Shown here one piece after another: positions 8,067-64,000 of a stretch of DNA of 64,000 nucleotides; position 1 is the stretch's first letter; every line of letters starts with the position of its first letter. Below the pieces are notes generated by a model, which saw only the letters and a program-made list of their open reading frames with translations, searched no databases and had not been told where the DNA came from. The stretch comes from an uncultured Bacteroidales bacterium (lineage in GTDB: Bacteria > Bacteroidota > Bacteroidia > Bacteroidales > WCHB1-69), in NCBI GenBank assembly GCA_947169105.1, contig CAMVOL010000009.1:11095-75094 (forward strand), written 5' to 3'. A program made the position numbers and the translations under genes.

Positions 8067-8074
8067 TATTTTTG
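8067..8074 (+). promoter_or_regulatory. -7 promoter box (TATTTTTG) for the dksA-like/lspA unit
   Basis: tTATTTTTGCCGC lies 26 nt upstream of ATG 8100. Confidence 0.5.
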
Positions 8075-8099
8075 CCGCTCATTTAAAAAACCAGTAACT

Positions 8100-8492: not shown

Positions 8493-8503
8493 ACTTCTGA
8501 ACG

Positions 8504-9088: not shown

Positions 9089-9132
9089 AAGTCTAAAGTT
9101 TAAAGTTTAGAGTTAAGGAGTTAAGAAGTTAA
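9082..9132. repeat. C-poor short-period AAGTT repeat tract between convergent genes
   Basis: aagttaaaagtctaaagtttaaagtttagagttaaggagttaagaagttaat shows a 7-8-bp periodicity of an AGTT core with almost no C on the + strand. Confidence 0.6.
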
Positions 9133-9151
9133 TGGGTAACACCCAAAGCCC

Positions 9152-9586: not shown

Positions 9587-9592
9587 AGTTCG

Positions 9593-11644
9593 TTAGTGTT
9601 TCTGTTTGAAGGCTGTTACGCCGTTTTCCAAGAATTGCAGGTACTTGTCAATATCCAATTCGTAATATTGCGGGCCCGCCAGAACGGAACCGTCGGTATC
9701 CACGATGAAATAGCAAGGTTGTGAATTGCACTGGTATTTGTGCAGCCCAATGTAGGTGTTTTTTTCGCCTAACATCTTGAGAACATTGCCGTTCTCGTCC
9801 GTGAGATAGTCGCTTTCCTGTAGCTCGATGTTTTTGTCGTCAACATAGAGCGCCACCACGACAAACGATTCGGCGAATTTTTTGCGCACCCGCGGATCGC
9901 TCCACACTTTGTTCTCAACAATGCGGCAGTTGGTGCATCCGTGACCGGTAAAGTCGATAAATACGGGCTTGTTCTGTTTCTGCGCCACCTGCAGAGCCTG
10001 GTCATAGTCGAAATAACCTTTGATTCCGAAGGGCAGTTTCAATTTATCTGCGTAATGCGGGCTTTCAATGTTGCTGTTTTGTGCTGTTCCTGAAAGGGAA
10101 ATGCTCTCCAATTCTTCACGGACAATATCCTGAATCACAAAATCTTGCGTCTCAACTGGCGGCAGCCAGCCCGAAATGGCATTCAGTGGAGCACCCCACA
10201 TCCCGGGGATCATATAGACAACGAAGGTGAAGGTGAAGATGGCGGCAATGAACCGGACGGGACTTTTTTGCACCGGAAATTCGTCATCGGCAGGGAAGCG
10301 GATTTTGCCGAGGAGGTAAAATCCAAGCAGAGAAAAGATCACAATCCAGAAGGCGAGATAAACCTCACGGTCAAGAAGGCCCCAGTGGTAGGTCTGGTCG
10401 GGAACGTTGAGGAACTTCAAAGCGAAAGCCAATTCGATGAAAGCGAGGATCACCTTGAGGGTGTTCATCCAGCCGCCCGATTTAGGCATCTTACCTAACA
10501 GACTGGGAAACAATGCGAAAAGGGTAAACGGAACGGCGATACCGAGGGAGAATCCCAGCATGCCGATAATCGGTTTCAAGAAAGAGCCGCCCGCCGCGTT
10601 CAACGCCACCGCACCGGCGATTGGCAGGGTGCAGGAGAAAGAGACCAGCACCAAAGTCAGCGCCATAAAGAAGGTACCGACCAAGCCGCCTCTCTGCTCA
10701 TTTTTGGCAGACTTGTTTACCCAGCTGCTCGGCAGGGTGATTTCGAAATAGCCGAACAACGATATGGCAAAGATAATGAAGATGATGGCGAACAAGACGT
10801 TTGGAATCCAGTGCGTGCTAAGGATATTGGCAAAATCGGGACCAAATATTGCTGCCAGAATTATGCCGAACAGAACAAAAATCACCACGATGGAAAGGCC
10901 ATAGAAGAGGGCTTCCATCTTGCCTTTTTTACCTTTTTTGAGGAAGAAGGAAACGGTCATCGGAATCATCGGGAAGACGCAGGGCATCAGCAGGCCGATG
11001 AGGCCGCCGCCGATGGAGGTGAGGAAAAATATCCACAGGGACTCCTCTTTCTTTTCGGAAGGTTCTGCGGTTTCCGGCTGTGGCTGAATGACCGCAGTGG
11101 TTGGTGCGGGCTCTCCCGCCACTTCCGCAGGTTCGCCCTCTTCGCTGGCAGGTTCGTCTTCGGCGGCGGCCTCCGCCGTTGCATCGGAGCCGTTGGTGGC
11201 GGGTACGGAAAAGACGAATTTATCCTGCACCTGCGTACAACGCCCGTCTATGCAGGCTTGTCCCGACAAGCTCCCCTTGATTGTAAATGACTTATCAGGA
11301 GTTTTAATCTTGATTTTCTGTTTGAACGTCACCTGTGTGGTGAAGTACTTGGAGTACATTTGGAACATCGAATCGTACGACACTTTCGGTTTGGGCTCGA
11401 TAGTCTTGCCAATGGTCTCATAATTGGCTGACGGCGTTAACTTGATTTCCAACGGCAGCTCCATACCATCGTGCTGAATGGCATATAAATGCCAGTCTTT
11501 CTGAATGGTGGCTTTGAGAAGAAGCTCCGCTTCCGTGTCCGAAATTCGATTGACATCATACTTCCATTTCACCGGAGATTCAACCTGGGCAAAAGAAATT
11601 AAGAAGCTGATACAAAGAAAAATAGCGGCGAAAAGTTTTTTCAT
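9593..11644 (-). CDS. dsbD: Thiol:disulfide interchange protein DsbD family (N-terminal domain + cytochrome-c-biogenesis TM core + thioredoxin domain)
   Basis: Start chosen at MKKLFAAIFLCISF (ATG 11644), although the ORF extends to 11737. It has a multi-TM DsbD core, an Ala/Glu/Pro-rich linker and a C-terminal thioredoxin CxxC (FTGHGCTNCRIVE). Confidence 0.85.
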   Translation of the reverse strand: MKKLFAAIFLCISFLISFAQVESPVKWKYDVNRISDTEAELLLKATIQKDWHLYAIQHDGMELPLEIKLTPSANYETIGKTIEPKPKVSYDSMFQMYSKYFTTQVTFKQKIKIKTPDKSFTIKGSLSGQACIDGRCTQVQDKFVFSVPATNGSDATAEAAAEDEPASEEGEPAEVAGEPAPTTAVIQPQPETAEPSEKKEESLWIFFLTSIGGGLIGLLMPCVFPMIPMTVSFFLKKGKKGKMEALFYGLSIVVIFVLFGIILAAIFGPDFANILSTHWIPNVLFAIIFIIFAISLFGYFEITLPSSWVNKSAKNEQRGGLVGTFFMALTLVLVSFSCTLPIAGAVALNAAGGSFLKPIIGMLGFSLGIAVPFTLFALFPSLLGKMPKSGGWMNTLKVILAFIELAFALKFLNVPDQTYHWGLLDREVYLAFWIVIFSLLGFYLLGKIRFPADDEFPVQKSPVRFIAAIFTFTFVVYMIPGMWGAPLNAISGWLPPVETQDFVIQDIVREELESISLSGTAQNSNIESPHYADKLKLPFGIKGYFDYDQALQVAQKQNKPVFIDFTGHGCTNCRIVENKVWSDPRVRKKFAESFVVVALYVDDKNIELQESDYLTDENGNVLKMLGEKNTYIGLHKYQCNSQPCYFIVDTDGSVLAGPQYYELDIDKYLQFLENGVTAFKQKH

Positions 11645-11677
11645 CACAATTCGATGGATTTGTGTAACAATGGGCGG

Positions 11678-11685
11678 CAAAAATA
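11678..11685 (-). promoter_or_regulatory. -7 promoter box (TATTTTTG) for dsbD
   Basis: The minus strand reads acTATTTTTGCCGCCC about 34 nt upstream of ATG 11644. Confidence 0.5.
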
Positions 11686-11698
11686 GTAAAAATAAACG

Positions 11699-11706
11699 TA
11701 TTTTTG
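11699..11706 (+). promoter_or_regulatory. -7 promoter box (TATTTTTG) for rfbA
   Basis: cgTATTTTTGCACCCC lies 46 nt upstream of ATG 11752. Confidence 0.5.
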
Positions 11707-11751
11707 CACCCCATATAATATTGTATAGATTTATCAACTAAAAACACGAAT

Positions 11752-12612
11752 ATGAAAGGAATCATTTTGGCCGGCGGATCCGGCACACGGCTTCACCCCT
11801 TGACCTTGGCCATGAGCAAACAGCTAATGCCGATTTACAACAAACCGATGATTTACTATCCGCTTTCCACGCTGCTTTCGGCGGGGATTCGCGATATCCT
11901 CATCATTTCCACCCCTACCGATCTTCCTCATTTTGAACGCCTTCTCGGTGATGGCAGCCGCATCGGGTGCCATTTCGAGTATGTGGTACAGCATGTGCCG
12001 AACGGTCTGGCGCAGGCGTTTGTCCTTGGTGCTGACTTCATCGGCAAAGATAAAGCAGCTTTGGTCTTGGGTGATAACATCTTCTATGGCAGTTCGTTTG
12101 AGCACAATCTGCACCTCAACAACGACCCCGACGGCGGCATTGTCTTTGCCTACCACGTTTCCGACCCCGAACGGTACGGTGTGGTGGAGTTCGATGAAAA
12201 CATGAACGCCGTCTCCATTGAGGAGAAGCCGAAACAGCCCAAGTCGAACTATGCTGTGCCGGGACTCTACTTCTACGACAACTCCGTGGTGGAAGTGGCT
12301 CGCAACATCAAACCAAGTGCCCGTGGCGAGTACGAAATTACCGATGTAAACAAATACTATTTGGAACATAAGAAGTTGAAAGTCTGTAAGATAGATAGAG
12401 GTACGGCATGGCTTGACACCGGCACGTTCCGCTCCCTTATTGAAGCCACCCAATTCGTTCAAGTGGTGGAGGAACGTCAGGGGCTGATGGTCGGTTGTAT
12501 TGAAGAAATCGCTTATAAACAAGGTTTTATTGATGCCGAACAACTCCTCCGAATTGCCGAGCCACTCCGTAAAAGCGGCTATGGCGAATATTTGGTGAAA
12601 TTGGTGAAATAG
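11752..12612 (+). CDS. rfbA: Glucose-1-phosphate thymidylyltransferase
   Basis: 286 aa beginning [18 protein letters not shown], followed by [10 protein letters not shown]-like, LGDNIFYG and EITDVN motifs. Confidence 0.92.
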
Positions 12613-12641
12613 CTCCTATCTCAATCTAATAAATGATTTTT

Positions 12642-14861
12642 ATGAAGAAAATCCTACTCGCTTTTGTGGTGCTTTTTTCGGGCGTCACTCTTTTCGGACA
12701 AACAGAATTAATTGATTTACAGGGTGTTTTCAAAGGAAAATACCGTTATGACCGTCTTCCGTCCTTGCAATGGCGGCCCGCGGGTAACCAATATTCCTAT
12801 TATGATAAGGAAAAGGATGCGGTAATTGGTGTGGATTTTGCCAAAGGAAAAGAAGCGGAACTGTTCAGGTTCCAGCAATTTTATGACTATTTTGCAAAAG
12901 TCAATGGTCAAAAGAATCTTGATGCTGCCAGTTTCCGGTCACAAGGTGGACGAGTTTCAACTGCTTTTTCTTGGAAAGATGACCAAACCCTCATTTTTGA
13001 TTTTGTAAACCCTTCTGATAAAAACACTTACCACGCGACGTATAGTTTTGCCACCAAAAGTTTCCAAATAGCACTGGCTAATGGTGAAACAGAAACCCCT
13101 GTGGATGAATCCACTGACGGCCTCATCCGCATCTCCAATTTTGAAGGTGAAGAAGGCTATTTCGTGACAAATGGAAAGGAACATTACCTCCTCTGTCCAG
13201 ACACAGGTGAGCATATTGTCTTCGGCGAGCCCGTCCACCGCAGCGAATGGAACATCAACGAGGGCTGGTACTTCTCCCCGAACAGCGGTTACATCGCCTT
13301 CTACCGTATGGACGAGTCGATGGTCGAAGACTACCCGCTTCTCCAGACGAGCGACGGTGATGGTGCTGCCCACATTGCCTATTTCAAAAACATAAAATAT
13401 CCGATGGCCGGACGCACTAGCCATCAGGTGAAAGTCGGCATTTTTGATATAGCGCAATCGTTCCAACAGAAAAAAACGGTTTATCATTACATCCAAACGG
13501 ATTTGAGAGATGGGGAATTCTTGACGAACGTAACCTTTTCGCCTGATGAGAAATATTTGTATATCACGCACTTGAACCGTGAACAGAACCATTCCAAACT
13601 GATTCGGTACGATGTGGCTACTGGGAAGAAAATTGGCACAGTACTCGAAGAAAGGGACGATCGTTTTGTGGAACCGCAAACCCGTATGATTTTCCTGAAG
13701 GACGGCCGTTTCATCTGGCAGAGCGACCGCGACGGCTGGAATCATTTTTATCTCTACCAGTTTGATGGAACATTGGTAAAGCAAATCACCAAAGGTAACT
13801 GGCCCGTACTCGAATCCTTGGGGCTCGACGAAAAAGAGGAATTCCTCTATTTTATGACCAACAAGGACAATCCCGTTGATCACTACCTCTATTCGGTGAA
13901 TTTGAAAACGGGTGATTTAAAGCAGCTTACAAAACAATCGGGAACACATACCATTGTTCTTTCCAATGATAAAAAGTACTTTTTGGACTACTTTTCGAGC
14001 CTTCATGTGCCGTTCCAGATTTACGCGGGTAGCACAGATGGAAAAACCTACAAGAAGATTTTTGAATCGAAAAATCCTTACGGGAATCTGAAATTGGGTA
14101 CGGATACGATTTTTTCTCTGAAAAATTCGCACGGCGACGACCTCTATTGCGAGATGATCCTTCCGCCTGATTTCAACCAAAACAAGAAGTATCCTTGCTT
14201 GGTTTATGTTTACGGAGGTCCTCATTCACAGTTGGTTACGAATACTTTTATGACGGCTGGCGTGTTTTTGAACTATATGGCGCAAAAGGGGTATGTGATT
14301 TTCGTGATGGATAACCGTGGGACGAACAACCGTGGCGCCGAATTTGAGAAGTGCATCCACCGCCAGCTGGGCGTTTGCGAAAGCGAGGACCAGATGGTGG
14401 GCATCCGCTACCTCCAGTCGTTGCCCTATATTGACAAGGAGCGGATGGGCATTGACGGTTGGAGCTTCGGCGGCTTCATGACTTTGACGATGGTGACGGA
14501 GCATCCGGAAGTGTTCCGCTCGGCATCGTGCGGCGGCCCCGTCGTAAATTGGGAGTGGTACGAAATTATGTACGGGGAACGCTATATGGACACCCCGCAG
14601 GAAAATCCCGATGGTTACGCAAAGGCTTGTATCATTCCGAAAATCAAGAACTTGAAGTGCCCCTTGCTGATTATGCACGGCCAGCAGGACAACACCGTCG
14701 TACAGCAGCACAGTTTGGAATTGCTCCACCAGTCGGTGCTGGACGATGTGCAGATCCAGTACTTCCCTTACACCACCCACGAGCATAATGTGCGGGGGCT
14801 CGATCGTGTGCAGATGTGGCACAAGATAGAACAGTTCCACGATCAGTATTTGATGAAATAA
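12642..14861 (+). CDS. Dipeptidyl-peptidase IV (S9B family serine peptidase)
   Basis: Signal peptide from ATG 12642 (there is an in-frame ATG at 12633). It has an N-terminal DPP-IV beta-propeller region and a C-terminal S9 catalytic domain with GWSFGGFMT nucleophile elbow and LLIMHGQQDNTV. Confidence 0.88.
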   Translation: MKKILLAFVVLFSGVTLFGQTELIDLQGVFKGKYRYDRLPSLQWRPAGNQYSYYDKEKDAVIGVDFAKGKEAELFRFQQFYDYFAKVNGQKNLDAASFRSQGGRVSTAFSWKDDQTLIFDFVNPSDKNTYHATYSFATKSFQIALANGETETPVDESTDGLIRISNFEGEEGYFVTNGKEHYLLCPDTGEHIVFGEPVHRSEWNINEGWYFSPNSGYIAFYRMDESMVEDYPLLQTSDGDGAAHIAYFKNIKYPMAGRTSHQVKVGIFDIAQSFQQKKTVYHYIQTDLRDGEFLTNVTFSPDEKYLYITHLNREQNHSKLIRYDVATGKKIGTVLEERDDRFVEPQTRMIFLKDGRFIWQSDRDGWNHFYLYQFDGTLVKQITKGNWPVLESLGLDEKEEFLYFMTNKDNPVDHYLYSVNLKTGDLKQLTKQSGTHTIVLSNDKKYFLDYFSSLHVPFQIYAGSTDGKTYKKIFESKNPYGNLKLGTDTIFSLKNSHGDDLYCEMILPPDFNQNKKYPCLVYVYGGPHSQLVTNTFMTAGVFLNYMAQKGYVIFVMDNRGTNNRGAEFEKCIHRQLGVCESEDQMVGIRYLQSLPYIDKERMGIDGWSFGGFMTLTMVTEHPEVFRSASCGGPVVNWEWYEIMYGERYMDTPQENPDGYAKACIIPKIKNLKCPLLIMHGQQDNTVVQQHSLELLHQSVLDDVQIQYFPYTTHEHNVRGLDRVQMWHKIEQFHDQYLMK

Positions 14862-45296: not shown

Positions 45297-45347
45297 CAAA
45301 CTTTATAACTTTATGAACTTGAAACTTTATAAACTTTATGAACTTTT
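45297..45347 (+). repeat. AACTTTAT-type short-period repeat tract directly upstream of the ugd promoter box
   Basis: caaactttataactttatgaacttgaaactttataaactttatgaacttttg contains the 14-mer aactttatgaactt twice. Confidence 0.65.
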
Positions 45348-51791: not shown

Positions 51792-52178
51792 CTAATCCTC
51801 TTCCCCGTACAAATTTTTGATGTACTCAATCTGCCGCCGGTCGCGTTTGGTGGGACGGCCTTCGCCGCGGTCGCGGTGCTCGAACCGCATATTGAGCATC
51901 TTCACCCGCTCGTACTCTTCGGGCGGCGTGAGGTCGGTCATGTACTGCGGCACTAACGGCGCTCCCACGCGACTTTTGGGACTATCGACCACCTGCACCG
52001 TTTTCTCCAACTGCCCGATGTGGACGACGTAAATCTCGTCTTTCTTCACTGCCTTCGACGGTTTCACGTTGGTGCCGTTCATCTTCACCTTGCCCGCGTT
52101 GCATGCGTCGGTGGCCATCGAGCGGGTCTTGAACAGCCGCACGCTCCACAACCATTTGTCAATCCGGATGTTCTCCAT
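51792..52178 (-). CDS. hslR: RNA-binding S4 domain protein (Hsp15/HslR-like)
   Basis: 128 aa beginning IRIDKWLWSVRLFKTRSMATDACNAGKVKMNG, with a basic C-terminal tail. Confidence 0.8.
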   Translation of the reverse strand: MENIRIDKWLWSVRLFKTRSMATDACNAGKVKMNGTNVKPSKAVKKDEIYVVHIGQLEKTVQVVDSPKSRVGAPLVPQYMTDLTPPEEYERVKMLNMRFEHRDRGEGRPTKRDRRQIEYIKNLYGEED

Positions 52179-52187
52179 AACGCTGGC

Positions 52188-53066
52188 TTATTTGCGGTGC
52201 AACTCTCTGGCGTGCAGAGTGTTCAGCAGCAGACAGGTCATCGTCATCGGGCCCACGCCGCCAGGTACGGGCGTGATGGCCTCACACTTCTTGGCCACCT
52301 CGTCGAACTTCACGTCGCCGCAGATGCGGTAGCCCTTCTCACTCTTTTCGTCGGGGATGCGGTGGATGCCGATGTCGATGACGGTGGCGCCCTCCTTCAC
52401 ATAGTCGGCGGTGATCATCTCCGGCTGGCCGATGGCCACGAGCAGGATGTCGGCAGTGGCGCAGACCTCCTTGAGGTTCTGTGTACGGCTGTGGCAGAGG
52501 GTGACGGTGGCGTCGCCCGTGTCGGCTTTTTCGGCGAGCAGCAGGGCGAGCGGTTTGCCCACGATGTTGCTGCGACCGAGCACCACGCAGTGCTTTCCTT
52601 TCGGGGAAATGCCGCTGCGTCGGAGCAGTTCCACGGTGCCGTAGGGGGTGGCGGGCAGGAAATCGGCCTCGCCCAACAGCAGTTTGCCGTTGTTCACGGG
52701 GTGGAAGCAATCCACGTCTTTTTTTGGATCCACGTGGGCCACTACTTTCTCCATACTGATGTGTTTGGGCAGCGGCATCTGGATGATGTAGCCGTCGATT
52801 TCATCGTCATTGTTCAGGAAATCAATGGCTTGCAAAAAATCCTCCTCTTTGATTTCAGTGGGGTAATGGTAGATGGAGGAGACGAAGCCGACCTCTTTGC
52901 AGGCGCGGCAGATACTGTCCACGTAGGTTTTGGCTGCGCCGTCGTCGCCCACGATGACCGCCGCGAGGTGCGGAACGGGCTGTCCCTCTTTCATCATCGC
53001 TTTCACCTTGTCGGCGATTTCGTCCTTCACTTCATTCGCAATCTTCTTACCGTCAATTACTTTCAT
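52188..53066 (-). CDS. folD: Bifunctional methylenetetrahydrofolate dehydrogenase/cyclohydrolase
   Basis: Start at MKVIDGKKIA (the ORF extends to 53096). Motifs are LAAVIVGDDGAAKTYV, VVLGRSNIVGKPLA and TPVPGGVGPMT. Confidence 0.92.
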   Translation of the reverse strand: MKVIDGKKIANEVKDEIADKVKAMMKEGQPVPHLAAVIVGDDGAAKTYVDSICRACKEVGFVSSIYHYPTEIKEEDFLQAIDFLNNDDEIDGYIIQMPLPKHISMEKVVAHVDPKKDVDCFHPVNNGKLLLGEADFLPATPYGTVELLRRSGISPKGKHCVVLGRSNIVGKPLALLLAEKADTGDATVTLCHSRTQNLKEVCATADILLVAIGQPEMITADYVKEGATVIDIGIHRIPDEKSEKGYRICGDVKFDEVAKKCEAITPVPGGVGPMTMTCLLLNTLHARELHRK

Positions 53067-53093
53067 AAAAATATCTTTAAAATTATTGGGGTG

Positions 53094-53101
53094 CAAAGGT
53101 A
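53094..53101 (-). promoter_or_regulatory. -7 promoter box (TACCTTTG) for folD
   Basis: The minus strand reads ttgttgTACCTTTGCACCCC 28 nt upstream of ATG 53066. It is nearly identical to the ugd promoter core. Confidence 0.55.
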
Positions 53102-53107
53102 CAACAA

Positions 53108-53206
53108 TAGTTTGTAAAGTTTGTCAAGTTCATCAAGTTTATCAAGTTTGTAAAGTTTATCAAGTTTGTAAAGTTTATCAAGTTCATCAAGTTTTAAAGT
53201 TTGGGT
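53108..53206. repeat. 9-bp tandem repeat array, about 11 units, consensus AAGTTTRTM
   Basis: tagtttgta aagtttgtc aagttcatc aagtttatc aagtttgta aagtttatc aagtttgta aagtttatc aagttcatc aagttttaa agttt. It lies between the divergent folD and giant-gene promoters. Confidence 0.85.
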
Positions 53207-53324: not shown

Positions 53325-53447
53325 TCAGATTTTATATCATAGTGTAAAAGTTGTTGATAACCCACCACTATGGCTTTGTAATTTATTGGAAATAAAATAG
53401 ATAGAAAAATAAATAAGAAAATTAATAACAATCAAAAACTATTTTTT

Positions 53448-56400
53448 ATGAAAAAGTTTTACACTTTTGAGCCTAAAAATTTCCGAATCTTGACCAAGAT
53501 GAAGAGTTTTCTTGCCGTCGCACTCCTTTTGCTGATGGCTGTAGGTAATGTAAAAGCACAAACGGAACAAACAAAGACGGTTAGTTTTGACAGTTATGGT
53601 TTTAGTAATGCCCAAACCTTCCCGTCAGGAGATGTTGTAAGTGGTTTTATAAGTTTTTCGACAGAGAAAAATAGTGCAACTACTGATCCTGCTTACTATG
53701 GGAATTCGAATAAAGATATTCGTTTATATGCGGGTAGCGGAAATGGCTGTGCTTTAAAGTTGTCCCTTTCTGGTGGAGTAATTGTAACAGCTGTGGAAAT
53801 TCAAAGTAAAAGAACCCAAACATCTACCTATAATTTTTACGTGGATGGAGTTGATAAAGGACAAACCACTGCATCATTGAGCGCGGGTCAATGGATTAAA
53901 TTGACAGGTATAAATGCTACTGAAACTGTTGTTTTCAAAAACACCAATGCAGCGGCAAGTGGTAGTGATAGTCAGATAAGAATCACGGGTATTAAGGTTA
54001 CATATATTGTTACTTCCTGCACAGTTACCCGCACGGAGCCGGTGAATCTGTCCGTGTGTACGTCACCGTACCAACAAGTGATATTTGGTAAAAATAATAA
54101 GGTATATTCTTCCACCCGTGCGGAAGGGGAGTATCTTGACACCATCGCTGGTGTGGGCGGCGATTGCGATACCGCCGTTACGGTGAACTTCACATTGATT
54201 CCTGCTTCCTATGAAAAGTATGATACCATCAAAGCTGGTGAACATTACGCCTTTGGTGATATGGATCTTACAACAACTACTAATGAAAATTATACATTCA
54301 CTGCAAGCTGTGGTTGCGACAGTATTGTGTTCCTTTATCTGACCGTTCTCCAGCCGGTGATGAAGGATGCCGTCAACGATTTTGTTTGTGCCGGTAAGAC
54401 CTATATTTATAGAGGCAAGAATTACACGGAGGCAAACACCTACTACGACACGGTGAAGATGGGTGCCGGCATTTGCGACACCATCTACACCTTGGTTCTC
54501 TCCGTCAGAGACAACGCCACGTATGCGTTCGACCAGACGATCAAGCCGGGTGAAACATGGTTCTTCACCGACAAGTATCCCAGCATCGCCACGGCTGGTA
54601 CTTATAAAGACACACTCACCGCCGCCAACACCTGTGACAGCATCGTGACCGTCACCGTGACCGTCCTCCTGCCGGTGGTGCTGCCTGCTGAGGATGCCAC
54701 CACCTGCGAAGGAAAAGCATATTCCTTCAGAGACAAGGATTACACCGTGGCAGATACCTACTACGACACAGTGAAGATGGGCGCCGGCATTTGCGACACC
54801 ATCTACACCCTGATCCTCACGGTGAACCCGAAAGCCACCTATGAATATGACTATTCGATGGACGAAGGTGACACCTACGATTTCTTCGGGACCCCGATCA
54901 CGGAATCCGGCGTCTATCCCTACACGCTGACGGATGCCGCCGCCAATGGCTGCGACAGTGTCGTCACCGTCACCGTCACCGTGATTCCGCTGCCCGATAC
55001 CATCTACGAGGAAACGGTTGCCATTTGCGAAGGTGAAACCTATACCTTCCATACGTTTGAAGGAGATAGTATATGTACAGAAACAAATATATATATATTC
55101 ACGAAAGCAGGTTTTGCCCAGGGTGGTCGCGACAGTATCCGTATCCTCAACCTCACCGTTATTGAAGAAGTGAGAGTGGACACCAGCATCACCATTTGCG
55201 AAGGCCAGTTGCCACACGAATTCTTCGGACGCACTTACGATGAAAGCATCGGAACAGGTACCCACAATTACACCATCCACATGGAAAGTGAGGGTGGCTG
55301 CGACAGCGCCTTAGTGCATCTGACCCTCATCGTCGGTGAGGAGTACGAAGGCGAGACGGTTGAGGCAACCATCTGCGAGAGCGAGCTTCCGTATCACTTC
55401 GGCCCCACCGGTCAGGATACTCTCATCCAGACGGCAGGTGCCCATGTCATCACGTTCCATACGGTGCTTGGTTGCGACAGCACCGTCACCCTGAAGCTCA
55501 ACGTCAATCCGGAATACGACCTTGCGGAAACGCTGACCATCTGCGAGAGCGAACTGGCCGGCACTGGCTATGTTTGGCGCGACACCGTCTTTATGGAAGG
55601 TACCACTTCCGGCATCTTCGTTTTCAACAGAGAGACTGTCGCCCACTGCGACAGCATCGTGACCCTGACCCTTACGGTGAACGGCCTCAACAACGAGACG
55701 GTCTATGACACCATCTGCGACAGCGAGCTGGCCGGCACCGGCTATGCTTGGCGCGACACCACCTTCATGGAAGGTACGGAGAGCGGCACTTTCGTCTTCA
55801 ACCGCAAGAATGCCAATAACTGTGACAGCATCGTCACCTACCACCTCACTGTCAATCCGGCCCGTACGGAAACGGCCTATGACACCATCTGTGCGAGCGA
55901 GCTGGCCGGAACCGGCTATGCTTGGCGCGACACCACTTTCATGGAAGGTACTACAACCGGCACTTTCGTCTTCAACAGAGAGACTTCCCTCGGCTGCGAC
56001 AGCATCGTGACCCTGTACCTCACGGTCAACCCGACCTATACGCTGCCTTTGGTGGACACCACCATCTGCGCCAGCGCACTGCCGTTCAGTTACTATGACA
56101 CCACTTTTGATGCGAACACGCTTCCTGGTGTGTACAACTATACCTTCCGCGGTCACACCCTTGCCGGCTGCGACAGCATCGGAACTGTGAAGCTCACGGT
56201 CAATCCGTCCTATACGGAGACAGATACTCTCAAAATCTGTCAGCTTGAGCTGCCCTATGTCTATACCACCGGCCTCGGCCAGACGATCACTTTGGAGGAA
56301 GGCATTCCCACGGGTACGTATGACACCATGCTTCTGTTCAACACCACCCTCAACTGCGACAGCAACATCGTCCTGCACCTCACGGTCACTCCGAGCACAG

Positions 56401-59400
56401 AGTGCCAGTTCATAATCCAAGTGGATACCGGCGCACATGGCACCGTTGATGGCGCAACCACTGTTTACTACCAGGATACCGCCCGTTTCACCATCAAAGC
56501 CGACAACTGCTACTATATCGAAAGCATTAAGATGGATGGCGTTGATGCCGCTTTCGACCCCTATAGCACATACAAGGAAGTTTCTTTCGACAGCGTTTAT
56601 ACGGACCACACGTTGGCCGTCACTTTCGCCATGTTCCAATACACGGTAACGGCTACGGCCCACGGCGAAGGCACCATCACGGCTAGCGACACCTACGACT
56701 GCGACTCTGTTGTGGTTTACAACTATGCCGCCGCTGCTGGTTATCATATCGACTCTGTGAAGGTTGACGAAGAGCTTACGGTTTATACCGACGAGACCCA
56801 GACAGAGGGCAGCAAGAACTTCGGTCCTATTGCCGCCAACCACACAATTGATGTCTATTACAGCATCAACCACTACACGGTGACGATCACGGCTGGTGAG
56901 CACGGCACGGTTACCCCGAGCGGTGTTCAGAATGTTGTTTATGGCACACAGCCGATCCTCAACTTCACTTCCGATGGTTGCTACGAAGTGGCTTCCATCA
57001 CAGTGAATGGTACCCAGATTGACACCACTTGCACCACCTTCACGCTTGACTCCATCAAGGAGAACACGACCGTTGACATCGCCTTCGACACCATTCATTA
57101 TCAGATTATGGTGACGAGAGCGGGTAACGGTAACGGTACTATCAACGGCAACTATGGTGATATTGCCGGTGAAATTGCCTGCGCTAATCCGGTCAATTAT
57201 GATGTGATTGCGGATGAAGGTTCCTATATTGACACTATTATTTGGTACGGTGTAACCATTCCGTTCACCGGCCACGTGACAAGCTGGTCCATCGGTCTGC
57301 CTTCTGTTACGCAGAATATGGAACTCTATGTGGTCTTCTCCCTTGACAAGGAGCATGTGTTGGCATACGCTGATGGCGGTCTTGGAACTGTCACTCCGGC
57401 CGACACAATGGTTGGCTTCGGCACCAGCTGTGACATCCAAGTGGTGGCCGACACGCTCAACGGTTATCATATCGCCACCATCTACACGGGCGAAAATCCC
57501 GAGAACGTGGTTTGGGAAGGCCAGAACAACGAAAAGACCCATATCTTCACTCTTGGCAGTGTGACTACCGACACCACCGTCCACGCCACCTTCGAGCTGA
57601 ACCGCTACACCGTAGCCGCTACGACGGAAGGTACGGAGGGCACCCTCACTCCCGATAGCATTACCGTGCTTCATGGTCATGACTTGGGCTTCACCGCTAT
57701 TGCCGGTGACTGCCAGTTCATCGACAGCATCTTTGTGGATGGTATTTCCCAGATCATTACCAATGTTGACACAATGAAATTCACGGTCAGCAACGTTATC
57801 ACGCCTGACCGCACGGTGCGCGTGGTCTTCTCCACTGTCCAGTATCAGATGACCGCCACCTTCAATAATGTGGAAGGCACGGTCAGCGACAGCATCGTGG
57901 ACTGCGGCAGCAGCTACACCTACACCATTACCCCGAACACGGGCTACCATGTGGACACTATTTACTATGATGCTGAAAACTTCGTCATAGGAGAAACCAG
58001 CTATACCTTTACGAACATCCGTGAAGATCATAACATCAAGGTCGTCTTCGCTATCAACCAGTACGAAGTGACCGCCAGCACGGACGGCAACGGCACGGTG
58101 ACGCCCACTTCCGAAACAGTGGCTCACGGCGATGATCAGACCTTTACCGTGACACCGAACGACTGCTACCATATCAGCAGCATCACCGTGAACGATGTGG
58201 ACTACGACCTGAGCCATGTGAGTGGTGGTACATTTACGGTTTCCAACATCACGGAGGCCACCACAGTGAAGATCAACTTCGCTCTCGACACCTTCCAGCT
58301 GGTCCAGACCATCACGGGTGAGGGTACGGTGAACGAAATGGCCGACACTACGGTGAATGTGCTTTGCGGCAGCGATTACATCTTCAACATCGCCGCTGCC
58401 GAAGGCAACCACATCGTAAGCTATACGGTTAATGGCGGAACTCCCGTTACGGTTGACAACAGCGAAAGCTATGTTGCTACGCTGACCGATACGATTAAGA
58501 ACATCCAAGCGGATTGCACGCTTGCCGCTGAATTCGCCGTGAACACCTACACCATTTACACGGAGAGACTTAGCGGTATGGGTACTTTCACTCCCGATGT
58601 CGTAACCGTCAACTACGATGCTGACACGATCATCATCGTTACGGCCGACAACGCCAACGGTTATCATATCGCTTCCGTCACTGCCACTGGTATCAATGAA
58701 GTTTACAGCAATGACGACCACAAGATAGTGGATACGGTGCATCTTACTAACATCCGCGCCAACGACACCCTGAAGGCAGAGTTCGCTCTCGACCTCCACC
58801 TGATTTCCGTAATTATCGAGGGTGAAGGTGCGGTTGCTCCGATGGACACCAACATCACTTTCGGTGACACCGTCACGTTCAACATCACTCCTTACGATTG
58901 CCAGTACATCAGCAGCATCGTCGTGGACGGTCGCGACACGACTATCACCGATCCTGCAGGTATGCAGCTGACCTTCAACCATGTGGTGGATACTCACAGA
59001 CTGGAAGTCACCTTTGCTCCTACCACCTATCTGGTCAAGTGGAAAGAGTACTATCCGGGTATGCCCACCATCAGAGAAGACTCCAACGTGGCCTGCGGTA
59101 CTGACTTCACTTACGAGGTTCGTGCCGAAGAAGGTTTCCACATCCACGAGGTCTATCTGGATTATGTCGTTGATACGACCTTCGAAACCGAACAGATTGA
59201 TGCGTATGACTTGGTAATCCCCAATGTCCGTGAGACCCACCTTATTGAGGTACAGTTCGAACAGGACTACTACAGCTTGCATCTTGACACGGTTGGCGCA
59301 GGTACGATTGTGTGCGACAGCGCTGATCTCTCGAAGATTTATTACAACACCCCGCTGCAGTTCACGGTGACTCCGGAAGAATGTTACGAGTTCACCAGTC

Positions 59401-62400
59401 TCACCATCAATGGTGTGAACTATACGGATCAAGTGGTGGGCGGTGTCCTCAACTGGAACGCCATCGACAGCGGTGCCGTGGTCGCCACCTTCAGCATCAT
59501 CCGTTACGAAATGGCCTCCTCGGTCAATGACGGCAATATGGGTACGGTGACACCCACCGATTCTGTGGATTGCGGTACGCCTTACACTTACTACATCGCC
59601 GCCAACGAAGGCTACCATATCGACACTATCACTTGCGGCTCGTTTGTCAAGGTGCTGGGTGAGAACGACAATGTTCTTGACACGTTAGTGATTGCGAACG
59701 CTGTTTCTGACACGGCCGTCCGTGTGGTCTTCTCCATCAACACTTACAATGTTACGATTTGCACACCTGCTCCTGAAAACGGCACATTGACCGTCAATCC
59801 TGCCATAGTGGAACACGGTGAAAACTGCGAGGTGACTATCGTTGCCGATTCTGTACACGGCTACCACATTGACACCATCTTCTGCGGTGACAACATCGTG
59901 CCGCTGGGCCAGAACGAGAACACGTTCTATGTATATAACATCAATGGTATCACTTCCGATACGACCGTCTGTGCGTCGTTCAGCCTGAACAACTACACGA
60001 TTACCGCTTCCATCGCTGCTGAAGATGTTGAACACCTCTCCATCATGCCTGGTGACACCAATGTGAAGTTTGGTGACACGGTGATTTACACGGTGAAGAG
60101 CATCAATGACTGCTACTACATCAACGACGAGATTTTGGTGGACGGTGTAGCTGTTGAGTTCACCACTGGCGACAGCACGCGTGCTACCTACGCTTTTGAA
60201 GCCATTAATTCGAACCACACGATTGTGGCCAACGCCGCGATTTACCGTTACGCAGTCACCACCACGGTCAATGACAACACTCTTGGTGAAATCACTCCGG
60301 GTGACACCACGCTTGACTGTGGTAGCGACTATGCTTACGTTGTGACCCCGATCACGGGTTATCATATTGATTCTGTGAAGGTGAACGGCGTGATGCAGAC
60401 CATTACCGACAGCTCCACCTTCTCCAGCACGATTGAGGACATCCACACGGATACGACGATTGCTGCTTACTTCAGCATCAACCATTACATGATTGTCGCC
60501 TCCACGGGTGATAACAATGGTACGATTGATCCGGTTGACACCATCGTTTACGAATACGGTGCAACCCCGACCTACATCATCAAACCGAATGACTGCTACT
60601 ACATCAGTGAGGTTCTGGTGGACGGCACGGCTGTGGAGTTTACCACTGGCGACAGCACGTACGCTACCTATACTTTCGATGCGATCGATGCGAGCCATAC
60701 CATTGTGGCCAACTTCGCCATCTACAAATATGATATGACGGCTGACTTCGAAGCGGCAATGGGTACTGTCACCACCGCTACCGACATTAACTGCGGTGCT
60801 GATTACCAATATATGATTACCGCCAACGAAGGCTTCCATATTGTCAGCTACACGATTGGTGGTGTTACTGTCACCAACACGATGGAAGAACCCAACGACT
60901 ACATCGTTGATTCTGTCCTGATCTCCCCGGTCAGCCAGGATACCAATCTTGTGGTTGAGTTCGATACGAACACCTACACTGTCTCTGTCTGTGCTGATGC
61001 AGTGAACGGCAGTCTTGTGGTGAACGATCCGACCGAGGTGAACTACAATGAAGGTACGACAGTCACTGTCGTTGCTGACACCGCCAATGGTTATCATATC
61101 GCCAGCATTACCGACAGCCGCGGCATCACCGTTCCTTACGGCCACAATACGGACAAGATCGCCACTTACAATGTGGACAATGTTGTTGCCGATGATACGG
61201 TGTGCGCCACCTTCGAACTGAACACCTTCACCATCCATACTGAAAACGGTGAAAACGGCACAATCACTCCGTCGAACGACACCATCGTCACCTACGGCGA
61301 TGTGGTTGACTTCGTCATCGAGCCGAACAGCTGCTACTACATCTCCAACATTTTGGTGGATGGCGAAAGCGTCTGGACCGGTTACACAGATTCTGTCAGC
61401 GCCTACACGCTCCAAATCAATGTTTCCGAATTCGATCCGGCCGTTGAGACCCACACCATCGCCACCGAATACACCATCTTCCAATACACGATGACATCCA
61501 CTGTCAATGATGCGACGATGGGTACGGTGACGCCCACCACCACGGTGGAATGCGGTTCGACCCACAACTACGAGATTGAAGCCACCACAGGTTATCATAT
61601 TGACCATGTGATTTTGGACAATGTCCAGACCGACTACGAAGGTCAGCAGAATACCGCCACCATCACGGTGACTGACATTCGTGCAGACCATCAGTTGGAT
61701 GTCTTCTTCGCGAAGAACCGCTACACAGTGACGGCCACCGCCGGTGAGCACGGCACGATTACTCCGTCGGGTGTGACCACTGTTGAACACGGCGCATCCC
61801 TCACCTACACGATTGCACCTGATCCTTGCTACTACATCGACAGCGTTCTGGTGAACGGCGAGGTTGTTGAATTCACCACTGGCGACAGCACAGGTGGTAC
61901 CTACACCTTCGCTTCCGTTGAGGACACCATGACCATCCACGCCGACTTCCATATCTATGAATATAGAATGATGGCTGAATATGATGAGGAAATGGGTTCT
62001 GTGGAGACAGGTATTGCCACCTGCGGCAGCAACTACACTTACACGATTCACGCCAACGAAGGCTACCACATCACGAGCATGCGTGTCGGCACGACGACGC
62101 ACAACAACAATGTGGGTCTGAATACGGATACTGTTGCTACCTTCAATGTCTATAGTGTCTATCAGGATACTACTTGCTACGTTGAGTTCGCTCGGAACAC
62201 CTACACTGTCAACTTCAATGTGACGGGTGAGGGTGAAGTTGAGCCGGGTAACACCACGGTCGATTACGACTCCACATTGGCTTACACGGTTACTGCCGGT
62301 ACAGGTTATCACATTGTGAGCATTACCGACAACGGCACAGTGGTTTACACCAATGACAACCGCGATACGGTTGCTCACTCTGGCAGCATTGCCAATATCC

Positions 62401-64000
62401 GTGAAAATCACACGATTGATGTAGTCTTCGCTATCAACGAGTACACCATCACTGCCACGGCTGGTAATGAAGGCGAAATCATCCCGGGTACGCAAACCGT
62501 CACCTACGGTGCTACGCCGAACGTTACCATCCGCACCCTCGAGGATTGCTACTATATCAGCCGCATCCTTGTGGACGGTGAGGAAGACACGGTCTTCACG
62601 AACAATGAAACCCGCTATGTTTACACCTTCGCTCCTGTTGATACAGATCACGTGATTGCAGCTGAATTCGGTATCCGCACCTACACGGTTATCGTTAATG
62701 CTGACACCAACGGTACGGTTGATCCGAGCGGTGACACACTCACGTACGACTGTGGTGCCACGGTCACTTACACCTTCACGCCGAATGATGGATACGAAGT
62801 GGTGAGTGTCACGGTCAACGGCAGCAACATTGGTGCCCAGACCAGCTACACTATCACCAATATCCAGAATGACTACACGATTGATGTGGTGTTCGGTCAG
62901 ACCTTCTACACCCTGACATCTGTTGCCTACGGTCATGGTACGATTGATCCGCTGGGTGAAACTACCGTTCTTGCTGACTCCTCTATGACCTACACGCTGA
63001 CTCCGGACGACTGCTACACAGTTTCTGAAGTTCTGGTCAACGGTGTCTCTTATCTGAACAACGAAGCCTTCGACGGTGAAACCCTCACCTTTGATTCTGT
63101 AACGTCGGATATGACCATCCAGGCTTACTTCCAGATTAAGACCTACACGGTTGAAACCGAAGCCAACGAAGGCGGTACAATCACCGAGACGGCTGTTTAC
63201 GATTGCGGTACGGATGTGGTCATCAACATCACTCCGGATGCCTGCCACACCCTTGATTCTGTTATGGTTGACACCACTGTGATGACGGATGTCACCGAAG
63301 TTTCCTTCAACGCACTGGATACCAACCACACGGTCATGGCCTACTTCTCCATGAAGACCTACGCCATCACCGCTTCTGTCAATGACACCTTGGGCGGCAC
63401 CATCACCCCGACCGACACGTTCGATTGCGGTGAGAGACCGACCTACGAGATTACTGCCAACGACGGCTATCATATCGACAGCGTTATGGTTGACGGTGTG
63501 TATCAGGGTGCTATTGGAAGCTACACCTTCAGTTCACTTGATGCAGATCATGAAATTATGGCTGTCTTCGCCAAAGACTTGCACCATCTGACGGCTTATG
63601 CCAACGCAGGTGTGCGGATTGAGCCCGTTGCCGACACTACGGTTGAACATGGCACAGACTTCACCTTCTACTTCACGATTGTGGATACCTGCTACGAGAT
63701 TGAAAATGTCACGGTTGACGGTGAAAGCATCGGTGCGGTTGATTCCGTTGCCTTCGACAGCGTGATTACTGATCATGTTGTGAATGTCACCACCACGTTG
63801 AAGACCTACACCATCACGGCTACGGCTATGGAAGGCGGTACTATCACGCCTGCTGGTGCCCTTACCGTTGAGTGCGGTGGCACACAGAGCTTCAGCATCA
63901 CGCCCGCCGTCGGTTACACGCTCGACAGCGTGATGGTGGACAGCGAGAATGTGGGCGAGGTCTATAACTACGTGTTCAGCGATGTCCATGAGGACCACAC
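53448..64000 (+). CDS. Giant repetitive cell-surface protein, 5' partial (more than 3,500 codons, continues beyond the window): signal peptide, unassigned N-terminal domain, 14 Cys-framed modules, ~30 InlB-B-repeat-like modules
   Basis: The frame with codon starts at positions divisible by 3 is open by hand translation from ATG 53448 to base 64000. A second ATG at 53499 gives MKSFLAVALLLLMAVGNVKAQ. It has consistent repeat grammar throughout and a promoter-like AT-rich upstream region. It is not in the ORF track, presumably because it has no stop in the window. Confidence 0.85.
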   Translation, partial: MKKFYTFEPKNFRILTKMKSFLAVALLLLMAVGNVKAQTEQTKTVSFDSYGFSNAQTFPSGDVVSGFISFSTEKNSATTDPAYYGNSNKDIRLYAGSGNGCALKLSLSGGVIVTAVEIQSKRTQTSTYNFYVDGVDKGQTTASLSAGQWIKLTGINATETVVFKNTNAAASGSDSQIRITGIKVTYIVTSCTVTRTEPVNLSVCTSPYQQVIFGKNNKVYSSTRAEGEYLDTIAGVGGDCDTAVTVNFTLIPASYEKYDTIKAGEHYAFGDMDLTTTTNENYTFTASCGCDSIVFLYLTVLQPVMKDAVNDFVCAGKTYIYRGKNYTEANTYYDTVKMGAGICDTIYTLVLSVRDNATYAFDQTIKPGETWFFTDKYPSIATAGTYKDTLTAANTCDSIVTVTVTVLLPVVLPAEDATTCEGKAYSFRDKDYTVADTYYDTVKMGAGICDTIYTLILTVNPKATYEYDYSMDEGDTYDFFGTPITESGVYPYTLTDAAANGCDSVVTVTVTVIPLPDTIYEETVAICEGETYTFHTFEGDSICTETNIYIFTKAGFAQGGRDSIRILNLTVIEEVRVDTSITICEGQLPHEFFGRTYDESIGTGTHNYTIHMESEGGCDSALVHLTLIVGEEYEGETVEATICESELPYHFGPTGQDTLIQTAGAHVITFHTVLGCDSTVTLKLNVNPEYDLAETLTICESELAGTGYVWRDTVFMEGTTSGIFVFNRETVAHCDSIVTLTLTVNGLNNETVYDTICDSELAGTGYAWRDTTFMEGTESGTFVFNRKNANNCDSIVTYHLTVNPARTETAYDTICASELAGTGYAWRDTTFMEGTTTGTFVFNRETSLGCDSIVTLYLTVNPTYTLPLVDTTICASALPFSYYDTTFDANTLPGVYNYTFRGHTLAGCDSIGTVKLTVNPSYTETDTLKICQLELPYVYTTGLGQTITLEEGIPTGTYDTMLLFNTTLNCDSNIVLHLTVTPSTECQFIIQVDTGAHGTVDGATTVYYQDTARFTIKADNCYYIESIKMDGVDAAFDPYSTYKEVSFDSVYTDHTLAVTFAMFQYTVTATAHGEGTITASDTYDCDSVVVYNYAAAAGYHIDSVKVDEELTVYTDETQTEGSKNFGPIAANHTIDVYYSINHYTVTITAGEHGTVTPSGVQNVVYGTQPILNFTSDGCYEVASITVNGTQIDTTCTTFTLDSIKENTTVDIAFDTIHYQIMVTRAGNGNGTINGNYGDIAGEIACANPVNYDVIADEGSYIDTIIWYGVTIPFTGHVTSWSIGLPSVTQNMELYVVFSLDKEHVLAYADGGLGTVTPADTMVGFGTSCDIQVVADTLNGYHIATIYTGENPENVVWEGQNNEKTHIFTLGSVTTDTTVHATFELNRYTVAATTEGTEGTLTPDSITVLHGHDLGFTAIAGDCQFIDSIFVDGISQIITNVDTMKFTVSNVITPDRTVRVVFSTVQYQMTATFNNVEGTVSDSIVDCGSSYTYTITPNTGYHVDTIYYDAENFVIGETSYTFTNIREDHNIKVVFAINQYEVTASTDGNGTVTPTSETVAHGDDQTFTVTPNDCYHISSITVNDVDYDLSHVSGGTFTVSNITEATTVKINFALDTFQLVQTITGEGTVNEMADTTVNVLCGSDYIFNIAAAEGNHIVSYTVNGGTPVTVDNSESYVATLTDTIKNIQADCTLAAEFAVNTYTIYTERLSGMGTFTPDVVTVNYDADTIIIVTADNANGYHIASVTATGINEVYSNDDHKIVDTVHLTNIRANDTLKAEFALDLHLISVIIEGEGAVAPMDTNITFGDTVTFNITPYDCQYISSIVVDGRDTTITDPAGMQLTFNHVVDTHRLEVTFAPTTYLVKWKEYYPGMPTIREDSNVACGTDFTYEVRAEEGFHIHEVYLDYVVDTTFETEQIDAYDLVIPNVRETHLIEVQFEQDYYSLHLDTVGAGTIVCDSADLSKIYYNTPLQFTVTPEECYEFTSLTINGVNYTDQVVGGVLNWNAIDSGAVVATFSIIRYEMASSVNDGNMGTVTPTDSVDCGTPYTYYIAANEGYHIDTITCGSFVKVLGENDNVLDTLVIANAVSDTAVRVVFSINTYNVTICTPAPENGTLTVNPAIVEHGENCEVTIVADSVHGYHIDTIFCGDNIVPLGQNENTFYVYNINGITSDTTVCASFSLNNYTITASIAAEDVEHLSIMPGDTNVKFGDTVIYTVKSINDCYYINDEILVDGVAVEFTTGDSTRATYAFEAINSNHTIVANAAIYRYAVTTTVNDNTLGEITPGDTTLDCGSDYAYVVTPITGYHIDSVKVNGVMQTITDSSTFSSTIEDIHTDTTIAAYFSINHYMIVASTGDNNGTIDPVDTIVYEYGATPTYIIKPNDCYYISEVLVDGTAVEFTTGDSTYATYTFDAIDASHTIVANFAIYKYDMTADFEAAMGTVTTATDINCGADYQYMITANEGFHIVSYTIGGVTVTNTMEEPNDYIVDSVLISPVSQDTNLVVEFDTNTYTVSVCADAVNGSLVVNDPTEVNYNEGTTVTVVADTANGYHIASITDSRGITVPYGHNTDKIATYNVDNVVADDTVCATFELNTFTIHTENGENGTITPSNDTIVTYGDVVDFVIEPNSCYYISNILVDGESVWTGYTDSVSAYTLQINVSEFDPAVETHTIATEYTIFQYTMTSTVNDATMGTVTPTTTVECGSTHNYEIEATTGYHIDHVILDNVQTDYEGQQNTATITVTDIRADHQLDVFFAKNRYTVTATAGEHGTITPSGVTTVEHGASLTYTIAPDPCYYIDSVLVNGEVVEFTTGDSTGGTYTFASVEDTMTIHADFHIYEYRMMAEYDEEMGSVETGIATCGSNYTYTIHANEGYHITSMRVGTTTHNNNVGLNTDTVATFNVYSVYQDTTCYVEFARNTYTVNFNVTGEGEVEPGNTTVDYDSTLAYTVTAGTGYHIVSITDNGTVVYTNDNRDTVAHSGSIANIRENHTIDVVFAINEYTITATAGNEGEIIPGTQTVTYGATPNVTIRTLEDCYYISRILVDGEEDTVFTNNETRYVYTFAPVDTDHVIAAEFGIRTYTVIVNADTNGTVDPSGDTLTYDCGATVTYTFTPNDGYEVVSVTVNGSNIGAQTSYTITNIQNDYTIDVVFGQTFYTLTSVAYGHGTIDPLGETTVLADSSMTYTLTPDDCYTVSEVLVNGVSYLNNEAFDGETLTFDSVTSDMTIQAYFQIKTYTVETEANEGGTITETAVYDCGTDVVINITPDACHTLDSVMVDTTVMTDVTEVSFNALDTNHTVMAYFSMKTYAITASVNDTLGGTITPTDTFDCGERPTYEITANDGYHIDSVMVDGVYQGAIGSYTFSSLDADHEIMAVFAKDLHHLTAYANAGVRIEPVADTTVEHGTDFTFYFTIVDTCYEIENVTVDGESIGAVDSVAFDSVITDHVVNVTTTLKTYTITATAMEGGTITPAGALTVECGGTQSFSITPAVGYTLDSVMVDSENVGEVYNYVFSDVHEDH
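54006..56400 (+). repeat. Array of 14 Cys-framed ~50-60-aa protein modules (coding repeats)
   Basis: Each module runs from about C-[EAD]-[GS]-[EQ] to [GN]CDS[IV]VT-x-x-LTV-x-P. Examples are GCDSIVFLYLTVLQP, TCDSIVTVTVTVLLP, GCDSTVTLKLNVNP and NCDSNIVLHLTVTP. Confidence 0.8.
56400..64000 (+). repeat. Array of about 30 ~75-90-aa beta-rich modules (Listeria-Bacteroides / divergent InlB B-repeat-like), coding repeats
   Basis: The recurrent pattern is xYxVTAxxGxxGTVTPxxxxxVxxGxxxxxxIxPxxCYxIxSIxVDG...YxFxxIxxxHxIxxxF, alternating with ...MGTVTP...CGSxYxYxIxAxxGYHI... variants. The family name is inferred from pattern memory, not from a search. Confidence 0.7.

Follow-up and report, generated by a model that had tools for sequence, protein, structure and literature searches.

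What does a conspicuous higher-order repeat in a giant bacterial gene record: a locus that still changes its copy number, or an old duplication that has since been inherited intact? The question is raised by a giant gene at the end of a 64,000-nucleotide (nt) stretch of an uncultured Bacteroidales genome (assembly GCA_947169105.1, contig CAMVOL010000009.1, positions 11,095 to 75,094 of the forward strand), hereafter the window. The original prediction, made from the letters of the window, sorted the modules of the encoded protein into three types, A, B, and C, whose order B-C-A-B-A recurs five times at about 1.2 kb. It took this period to imply expansion by unequal recombination, and hence to make the locus a candidate for strain-to-strain length variation and for assembly collapse. 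We find that the period is real and that the consequences drawn from it are not supported. The array is probably an ancient, diverged, and stably inherited higher-order repeat in the stalk, putatively stapled by cysteines, of a giant surface protein of gut and rumen Bacteroidales.

A five-module order recurs along the giant gene

The frame of the giant gene is open on the + strand from 53382 to 63998, the last base of the window, and the fragment in the window encodes 3,499 amino acids (aa). An iterated hidden Markov model (HMM) detects 32 consecutive modules of 72 to 88 aa (M01 to M32) from aa 974 (nt 56421) onward:

56421 to 57116, + strand: modules M01 to M03 (A-B-A), a partial unit before the array
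57117 to 58304, + strand: super-repeat 1 (M04 to M08, B-C-A-B-A)
58305 to 59522, + strand: super-repeat 2 (M09 to M13)
59523 to 60743, + strand: super-repeat 3 (M14 to M18)
60744 to 61976, + strand: super-repeat 4 (M19 to M23), within the six-module structure model described below (confidence 88)
61977 to 63155, + strand: super-repeat 5 (M24 to M28), whose second module, M25, is B-like and lacks the cysteine
63156 to 63998, + strand: tail modules M29 to M32, with cysteine pattern 2-b-a-b (code explained below) and M32 cut by the window end

We show that the order of five recurs at about 1.2 kb, as had been predicted. Normalised Smith-Waterman similarity between modules peaks at lags of 5, 10, and 15 (0.25 vs about 0.15 elsewhere), and the lag-5 value of M04 to M28 was reached by none of 20,000 full module shuffles. 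Each unit aligns over its full length of about 400 aa with other units at offsets of 5, 10, and 15 modules, at 27 to 41% aa identity, and most out-of-register alignments score lower than these; the best pair, super-repeats 3 and 4, shares 41% aa identity (E = 7e-90). The predicted unit starts (57096, 58290, 59502, 60726, and 61959, with an end at 63140) are all in frame and sit 15 to 21 nt upstream of the HMM boundaries at 57117, 58305, 59523, 60744, 61977, and 63156.

The natural phase of the array is A-B-A-B-C counted from M01, of which the earlier B-C-A-B-A is a rotation. A sixth, degenerate unit in M29 to M33 was considered and rejected, since both M29 and M30 look like the second B position rather than like B1 and C.

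The units are strongly diverged at the DNA level

The expected 1.2-kb diagonal is present in protein comparisons and almost gone in DNA comparisons. Codon-aligned super-repeats are 46 to 55% identical in nucleotides (36 to 45% at third codon positions) and 29 to 43% identical in amino acids. Global DNA autocorrelation of the array gives no usable peak, owing to indels, and Tandem Repeats Finder (TRF; period limit 500) reports nothing in the module array. A blastn self-comparison yields a single high-scoring segment pair (HSP) in the array, of 292 nt and 68% identity at a lag of 1233. Adjacent modules share a mean aa identity of 27.9% and at most 37.5%, and no module pair exceeds the 56.6% shared by M16 and M18, with M18 and M23 next at 51.9%.

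Equivalent modules had also been said to share long, nearly identical stretches, which overstates the likeness. The longest exact repeat in 56400 to 63998 is 20 nt, and the copies of the stretch given as an example carry mismatches:

60153 to 60179, + strand: 27-mer encoding VEFTTGDST in M16, with near-copies at 60633 to 60659 (M18) and 61866 to 61892 (M23)

At 60153 the match to the 27-mer is exact, and the copies at 60633 and 61866 each differ from it at two positions. Nor do its copies all lie in equivalent modules, as M16 sits at a non-equivalent position of the unit. Among orthologs, EFTTGDST is found in M23 of the closer ones and in M18 of some only, and M16 carries it in the window only. 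We rejected it as a motif of the window lineage given its presence in M23 of those orthologs; only its spread to M16 is window-specific. The copies look like the product of local gene conversion among A modules.

These data bear on the idea of an actively recombining array, in which unequal steps of 1.2 kb would change copy number and collapse assemblies in the manner of Periscope proteins. The period of five does imply a past block duplication, and the 27-mers look like traces of gene conversion. Set against this are the low nucleotide identity between units and the one weak HSP; furthermore, with no exact repeat longer than 20 nt, neither homologous unequal crossing-over nor k-mer collapse has a substrate. 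Periscope repeats, unlike these units, are identified at 80% identity or more (PMC8201768).

Module order and number are conserved among orthologs

We show that the giant gene has full-length orthologs and that these keep its internal order. A metagenome scan recovered a complete, colinear ortholog of 3,682 aa (L007/L008) at 39% identity, whose modules map one-to-one to those of the window and whose tail is an Fn3 domain followed by a sorting-type C-terminus. A database search added about 22 further orthologs of 1,701 to 3,654 aa and 37 to 66% identity, all of them unnamed proteins; the query was M03 to M28 (2,090 aa), as shorter queries gave only matches below about 1.75 times the query length. 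The gene occurs in four species-representative genomes, all Bacteroidales metagenome-assembled genomes; the samples that carry orthologs include horse feces, buffalo rumen, and further gut material.

When module types are assigned by HMMs derived from the window's own A, B, and C sets, the window and its two closest orthologs read (ABABC) x5 and then ABA-x-BABA, which makes 33 modules, and the other orthologs keep the same order (23 orthologs typed). Internal module order and number are constant through all five units in about 24 orthologs, none of which are conspecific strains. A multiple alignment reveals only three kinds of length difference: loss of M01 and M02 in two orthologs, loss of M01 to M07 in two orthologs (-7 = 2+5), and, in most orthologs, a domain of about 170 aa that is not a repeat and separates M08 from M09. 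This domain is absent from the window, P0180, P0181, and P0199, and has a sub-threshold Pfam match (NOMO1-like, 18 bits).

Strain-to-strain length variation is thus not supported, given the nucleotide divergence of the units and the shared internal count. Ortholog pairs that are 95 to 100% identical over about 12 modules also have the same module count. The losses at the N-terminal array edge are in keeping with an active array, since P0199 and P0200 fall short of P0197 and L007 by five modules and of the remaining orthologs by seven.

Assembly collapse fares no better. Many full-length ortholog genes of about 11 kb lie on short-read contigs of 13 to 17 kb, which means that these genes assemble without collapse, although one short-read metagenome contig (L001) does end near the start of the giant gene. 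Taken with the divergence of the units, these observations largely refute the actively recombining array, which we regard as very improbable. What survives of the predicted 1.2-kb expansion is very probably an old tandem duplication of a five-module block, not ongoing unequal recombination.

Some orthologs are mosaic alleles. In the pairs P0184/P0185, P0187/P0192, and P0186/P0190, runs of 95 to 100% identity stand beside modules at 38 to 87%; between P0187 and P0192, module 25 is at 38% and module 29 at 45% identity. The mosaics indicate in-register allelic exchange, with modules replaced between lineages while their number stays the same, and not unequal exchange. Ortholog heads are also swapped, with at least two unrelated types among the N-terminal 200 to 250 aa (L007, position 2228 onward). 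Such variable heads and mosaic alleles are what diversifying selection on a surface structure would be expected to produce.

Modules cluster by type and, in part, by position

The three predicted module types are recovered by unsupervised clustering. We built one profile for each of the 33 positions from 23 orthologs and compared all pairs by hhalign; the mean profile-profile score is 110 at lag 5, versus 47 to 68 at lags that are not multiples of five. The C cluster comprises positions 5, 10, 15, and 20; the A cluster 1, 3, 6, 8, 11, 16, 18, 21, 23, 26, 28, 31, 32, and 33; and the B cluster 2, 7, 9, 12, 14, 17, 19, 22, 24, 25, 27, 29, and 30. M04 and M13 are outliers, and M29 is a hybrid module. 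M25, taken earlier for the fifth C module, clusters with B and differs in having no cysteine.

The predicted grouping of modules by their place in the super-repeat holds for two of the types. B modules split into positions 9, 14, 19, and 24 versus 2, 7, 12, 17, 22, and 27, a division for which 2 of 252 partitions are as good, the possible minimum, and the C modules group as a single clade. No such separation is seen between the two A positions (46 of 252 partitions). Modules at the same position are therefore more alike, as in a super-repeat, for B and C and not for A.

We conclude that tandem duplication of a block of five modules and about 1.2 kb very probably built up the array, because the units align in register over their full length and because B and C modules cluster by position. 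A rival account dispenses with the block: a structural rule (a-b-a-b-none) would have imposed the period on single or double modules that were duplicated independently. Other Flg_new_2 arrays lend it some plausibility. They are either homogeneous (module similarity 0.55 to 0.8) and without a higher order, or of period 2 (L016 and L021), which makes an A-B pair a plausible older unit. A diverged period of five was found in this ortholog family and in a shorter relative, P0209. The indistinguishable A positions and the B-like M25 in a cysteine-less slot would also fit. Against such a rule, B modules split cleanly by unit position, C modules are one clade, and whole units align in register with scores far above those out of register; we consider this account unlikely.

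A cysteine grammar couples consecutive modules

We show that cysteines covary between neighboring modules. The module HMM contains two cysteine-rich columns, the C of ..CYYI (A-site) and the C of DCG (B-site). In A modules a cysteine opens the ..CYYI strand, in B modules one sits in the DCG loop, and C modules have neither; module types correspond to cysteine states, and the grammar explains the types. Writing a for the A-site only, b for the B-site only, 2 for both, and - for neither, every ortholog reads abab- x5 and then aba2bab-. When the A-site of module i and the B-site of module i+1 are scored at each ortholog junction, both are occupied in 294 cases, neither in 404, the B-site only in 5, and the A-site only in 0. 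An A-site cysteine is thus followed by a B-site cysteine in the next module at 294 of 294 junctions. M29, between an A and a B, carries both sites, whereas M25 (B-like, after a B) and M33 (A-like, at the array end) have no cysteine, which fits a pairing rule because no partner module exists there.

The pattern recurs in 171 unrelated Flg_new_2 proteins, which we examined because the cysteine pattern of orthologs is inherited and distant arrays offer independent support. At their junctions, both sites are occupied in 269 cases, a single one in 2 and 2, and neither in 1406, whereas the reverse pairing is uncoupled (196/72/79). Individual arrays read a222222b, a22222222ba, -a2ba2b-a2b, --aba2b--, and similar. 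Complete a-2*-b chains number 48, against four true singletons that break the rule. Chains that start with a and end with b are expected for a disulfide between consecutive modules and not for an intra-module bond.

This suggests that the A-site cysteine of module i is bonded to the B-site cysteine of module i+1. From the covariation we infer a staple grammar [A=B][A=B]C, with two stapled pairs and one unstapled spacer per unit. The B-C-A-B-A phase would then cut through a stapled pair, and the two losses at the array edge would fall between pairs. In AlphaFold2 (AF2) models, strand 3 begins with the A-site, and the B-site comes immediately after the first hairpin; a strand order of this kind is compatible with the two sites lying at opposite poles of the module.

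Alternatively, the cysteines could be free thiols in the module interior, or could bind a metal or take part in another modification, with A and B as old alternating subfamilies. The host is an anaerobe, and the domain between M08 and M09 splits a presumed pair, both of which favor this alternative. Yet in unrelated arrays the chains start A-site-only, run through both-site modules, and end B-site-only, a pattern expected only for pairing of i with i+1, and cysteines are missing exactly where a partner would be. We therefore regard unbonded cysteines as a possible but somewhat doubtful explanation, and continue with the inter-module disulfide.

As far as the searched literature shows, the cysteine grammar is new; we found no paper there on PF18998 architecture. 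A staple-like grammar is used differently in another gut Bacteroidales protein. Contig L016 (JAGCXN010000036.1, yak rumen Bacteroidales) encodes at 2629 to 14631 another giant protein, distinct from this one, in which 4,001 aa hold 48 Flg_new_2 modules; its module similarity has period 2, and after long cysteine chains (a22..2b) comes a series of ba pairs. Separately, two C-type modules of the window, M15 (59763 to 60017) and M20 (60987 to 61238), have a cysteine pair of their own, one in an N-terminal ..C. and the other, V-C-A-x-F, in the final strand. Across 16 aligned orthologs these two residues are wholly or almost invariant; the pair is absent from M05 and M10, and could form an intra-module disulfide.

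Parts, fold, and presumed secretion of the giant protein

Upstream of the modules, the giant protein has a distinct N-terminal region:

53448 to 63998, + strand: 5' part of the giant gene, which runs past the window end; assigned by PF18998 and complete orthologs
53448 to 53498, + strand: 17-aa N-terminal extension (MKKFYTFEPKNFRILTK) before the signal peptide, found in nearly all full-length orthologs
53499 to 53561, + strand: Sec-type signal peptide MKSFLAVALLLLMAVGNVKAQ, read by eye from the sequence and not by a predictor
53562 to 54128, + strand: N-terminal head domain of about 190 aa, replaced by unrelated heads in some orthologs
54129 to 56420, + strand: cysteine-containing repeats of about 58 to 106 aa (...C...GCDS.VTL.LTV), from TRF and blastn self-comparison

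The gene likely starts at the ATG at 53448. Complete orthologs measure 3.1 to 3.7 thousand aa, and by comparison with them about 0.8 kb would be missing at the 3' end, comprising one module, an Fn3 domain, and a C-terminal domain of a type IX secretion system (T9SS) kind. Long - strand open reading frames (ORFs) at 55311 to 59618 and 59685 to 63473 were rejected as shadow ORFs of the giant gene. The 17-aa extension (MKKFYTFEPKNFRIF.K) is kept even in orthologs that are only about 40% identical overall, and may represent either a translated leader or a lengthened signal region. For the head region (window 53502 to 54500), Pfam gives no match, adhesive domains included. The cysteine-containing repeats total about 760 aa and have a 174-nt tandem period at 55536 to 56030 (TRF); their homologs are Bacteroidota proteins with a T9SS or gliding C-terminal domain.

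The modules belong to PF18998 (Flg_new_2, divergent InlB B-repeat), which matches in five stretches at 157.5 bits (E = 8.2e-47; gathering score 23.6 bits), while NCBIfam has no match for the giant protein. AF2 models are confident, with a predicted local distance difference test score of 88 for six modules and 91 for one, and show seven-strand, all-beta modules. Against the PDB, a Foldseek search with the single-module model returned generic Fn3/Ig-like domains as top matches (best E = 0.18), the six-module model gave generic multi-domain matches only, and a search by sequence gave no match.

Most likely, the region encodes the stalk of a fibrillar surface protein that is secreted by the T9SS. 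Ortholog P0180 has an fn3 domain above cut-off (28.8 bits), and P0180 and P0184 match the T9SS C-terminal family PF18962 (Por_Secre_tail) at 19.6 to 20 bits, below its 27-bit cut-off; precomputed Pfam lists of the orthologs contain no PF18962 entry. T9SS secretion and a stalk or adhesin role are both presumptive.

Flanking DNA

The DNA upstream of the giant gene contains two arrays of one 9-mer family, each just upstream of a gene and in the same orientation relative to it. The first, at 53109 to 53203, holds 10.6 copies of AGTTTRTMA (AAACTTKAY read on the - strand); it lies 45 to 140 nt upstream of folD (- strand, ATG at about 53066), and its distance upstream of the giant gene is about 245 nt. 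The other array, at 45298 to 45346, holds 5.8 copies of AAACTTTAT directly upstream of a UDP-glucose 6-dehydrogenase gene. These arrays may be regulatory or promoter-associated repeats. A + strand ORF at 52020 to 53117 (365 aa) was rejected as a shadow, folD occupying the - strand there (52188 to 53096). Metagenome contigs with an identical carbamate kinase carry folD and an S4/Hsp15-like gene on the - strand at this place; L001 is one of them, and it is this contig that ends about where the giant gene begins.

Origin and significance of the period

The ancient, stably inherited repeat can be set out as a sequence of probable steps. The protein would consist of a signal peptide, a variable head, cysteine-rich repeats, about 33 all-beta Flg_new_2 modules, an Fn3 domain, and a T9SS-type C-terminal sorting domain. 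A five-module block would have been duplicated in tandem long ago, and its copies would since have diverged to about 30 to 40% identity and been inherited module for module. About 33 modules would make a stalk of the order of 100 nm. Pairing of the A-site cysteine of one module with the B-site cysteine of the next would yield the [A=B][A=B]C units. The alternation of dissimilar neighbors may also reduce inter-domain misfolding.

Several observations weigh against parts of this reading. The inseparable A positions and the outliers M04 and M13 blur the history of block duplication, partly through gene conversion among A modules. The 294 ortholog junctions are not independent, as their cysteine pattern is inherited. 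In most orthologs the domain of about 170 aa falls inside the presumed pair of M08 (a) and M09 (b) and would have to loop out. The single-module model is without a significant PDB match, the T9SS C-terminal match is below the Pfam threshold, and the window does not include the C-terminus of the gene. The stalk or adhesin role is likewise a presumptive one.

These results suggest that a conspicuous higher-order repeat need not be unstable, as this one is kept module for module across lineages that are about 40% identical. Annotators should accordingly refrain from marking the array as a contingency locus or as a hazard for assembly. The family itself, which is large and wholly uncharacterised, has members of about 3,600 aa in Bacteroidales of the herbivore and human gut. 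Tentatively, and with less than even confidence, we propose that Flg_new_2 arrays follow a staple code, in which the cysteine pattern would set which junctions of the stalk are rigid and which act as hinges. If this is true, [A=B][A=B]C x5 would yield a rod whose period is fixed at about five modules. It could have a mechanical or spacing function or undergo lateral packing, beyond serving as a mere spacer, and the locked junctions of any Flg_new_2 stalk could be read from its sequence.

Comparison with known systems

Periscope proteins (SasG, Rib, and Sgo_0707) resemble the giant protein in projecting an N-terminal head on a rod of tandem folded domains, which in SasG alternate between G5 and E. 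They are identified by repeats longer than 50 aa at 80% identity or more, and their repeat number varies between strains (Whelan et al. 2021; PMC8201768). Here the repeats are 25 to 43% identical in aa and 46 to 55% in DNA, with no module pair above 56.6%, and the module count is conserved: among the roughly 24 orthologs, none of them conspecific, only the array edge differs (by 0, -2, or -7). Neighboring domains in multidomain proteins tend to be dissimilar (PMC4660218, PMC8201768), a rule that the giant protein obeys (maximum 37.5%) and Periscope proteins break.

The nearest architectural analogy is found in the 7- and 11-domain Ig/Fn3 super-repeats of the titin A-band (PMC3859903). In both cases ordered domain subtypes are repeated in tandem, domains at the same position are more alike than neighbors, and the pattern is ancient and conserved. 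Titin differs in being eukaryotic and intracellular, and in its folds. Furthermore, the titin period matches the thick-filament lattice, whereas the giant protein has no known partner lattice and its two A positions are indistinguishable.

Fibrillar adhesins are the nearest functional class (Monzon, Lafita, and Bateman 2021; PMC8286594). They share with the giant protein a stalk of many tandem domains from one Pfam family (here at least 32 consecutive modules), a distinct terminal region, and a putative surface-anchoring signal. They differ in that the head of the giant protein has no recognised adhesive Pfam domain; the term "Flg_new" is absent from the main text of that study. The 51-domain adhesin of Mobiluncus mulieris likewise has stalk domains with conserved covalent cross-links, disulfides included. 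These cross-links are reported to be intramolecular and to lie in each domain (PMC10619420), whereas those proposed for the giant protein would join consecutive modules.

The modules are finally comparable to the Listeria InlB B-repeat, Flg_new (PF09479), and Flg_new_2, as they score far above the PF18998 threshold. They differ from the InlB B-repeat in that the predicted seven-strand module has no significant Foldseek match in the PDB, InlB included, such that membership follows from the sequence profile.

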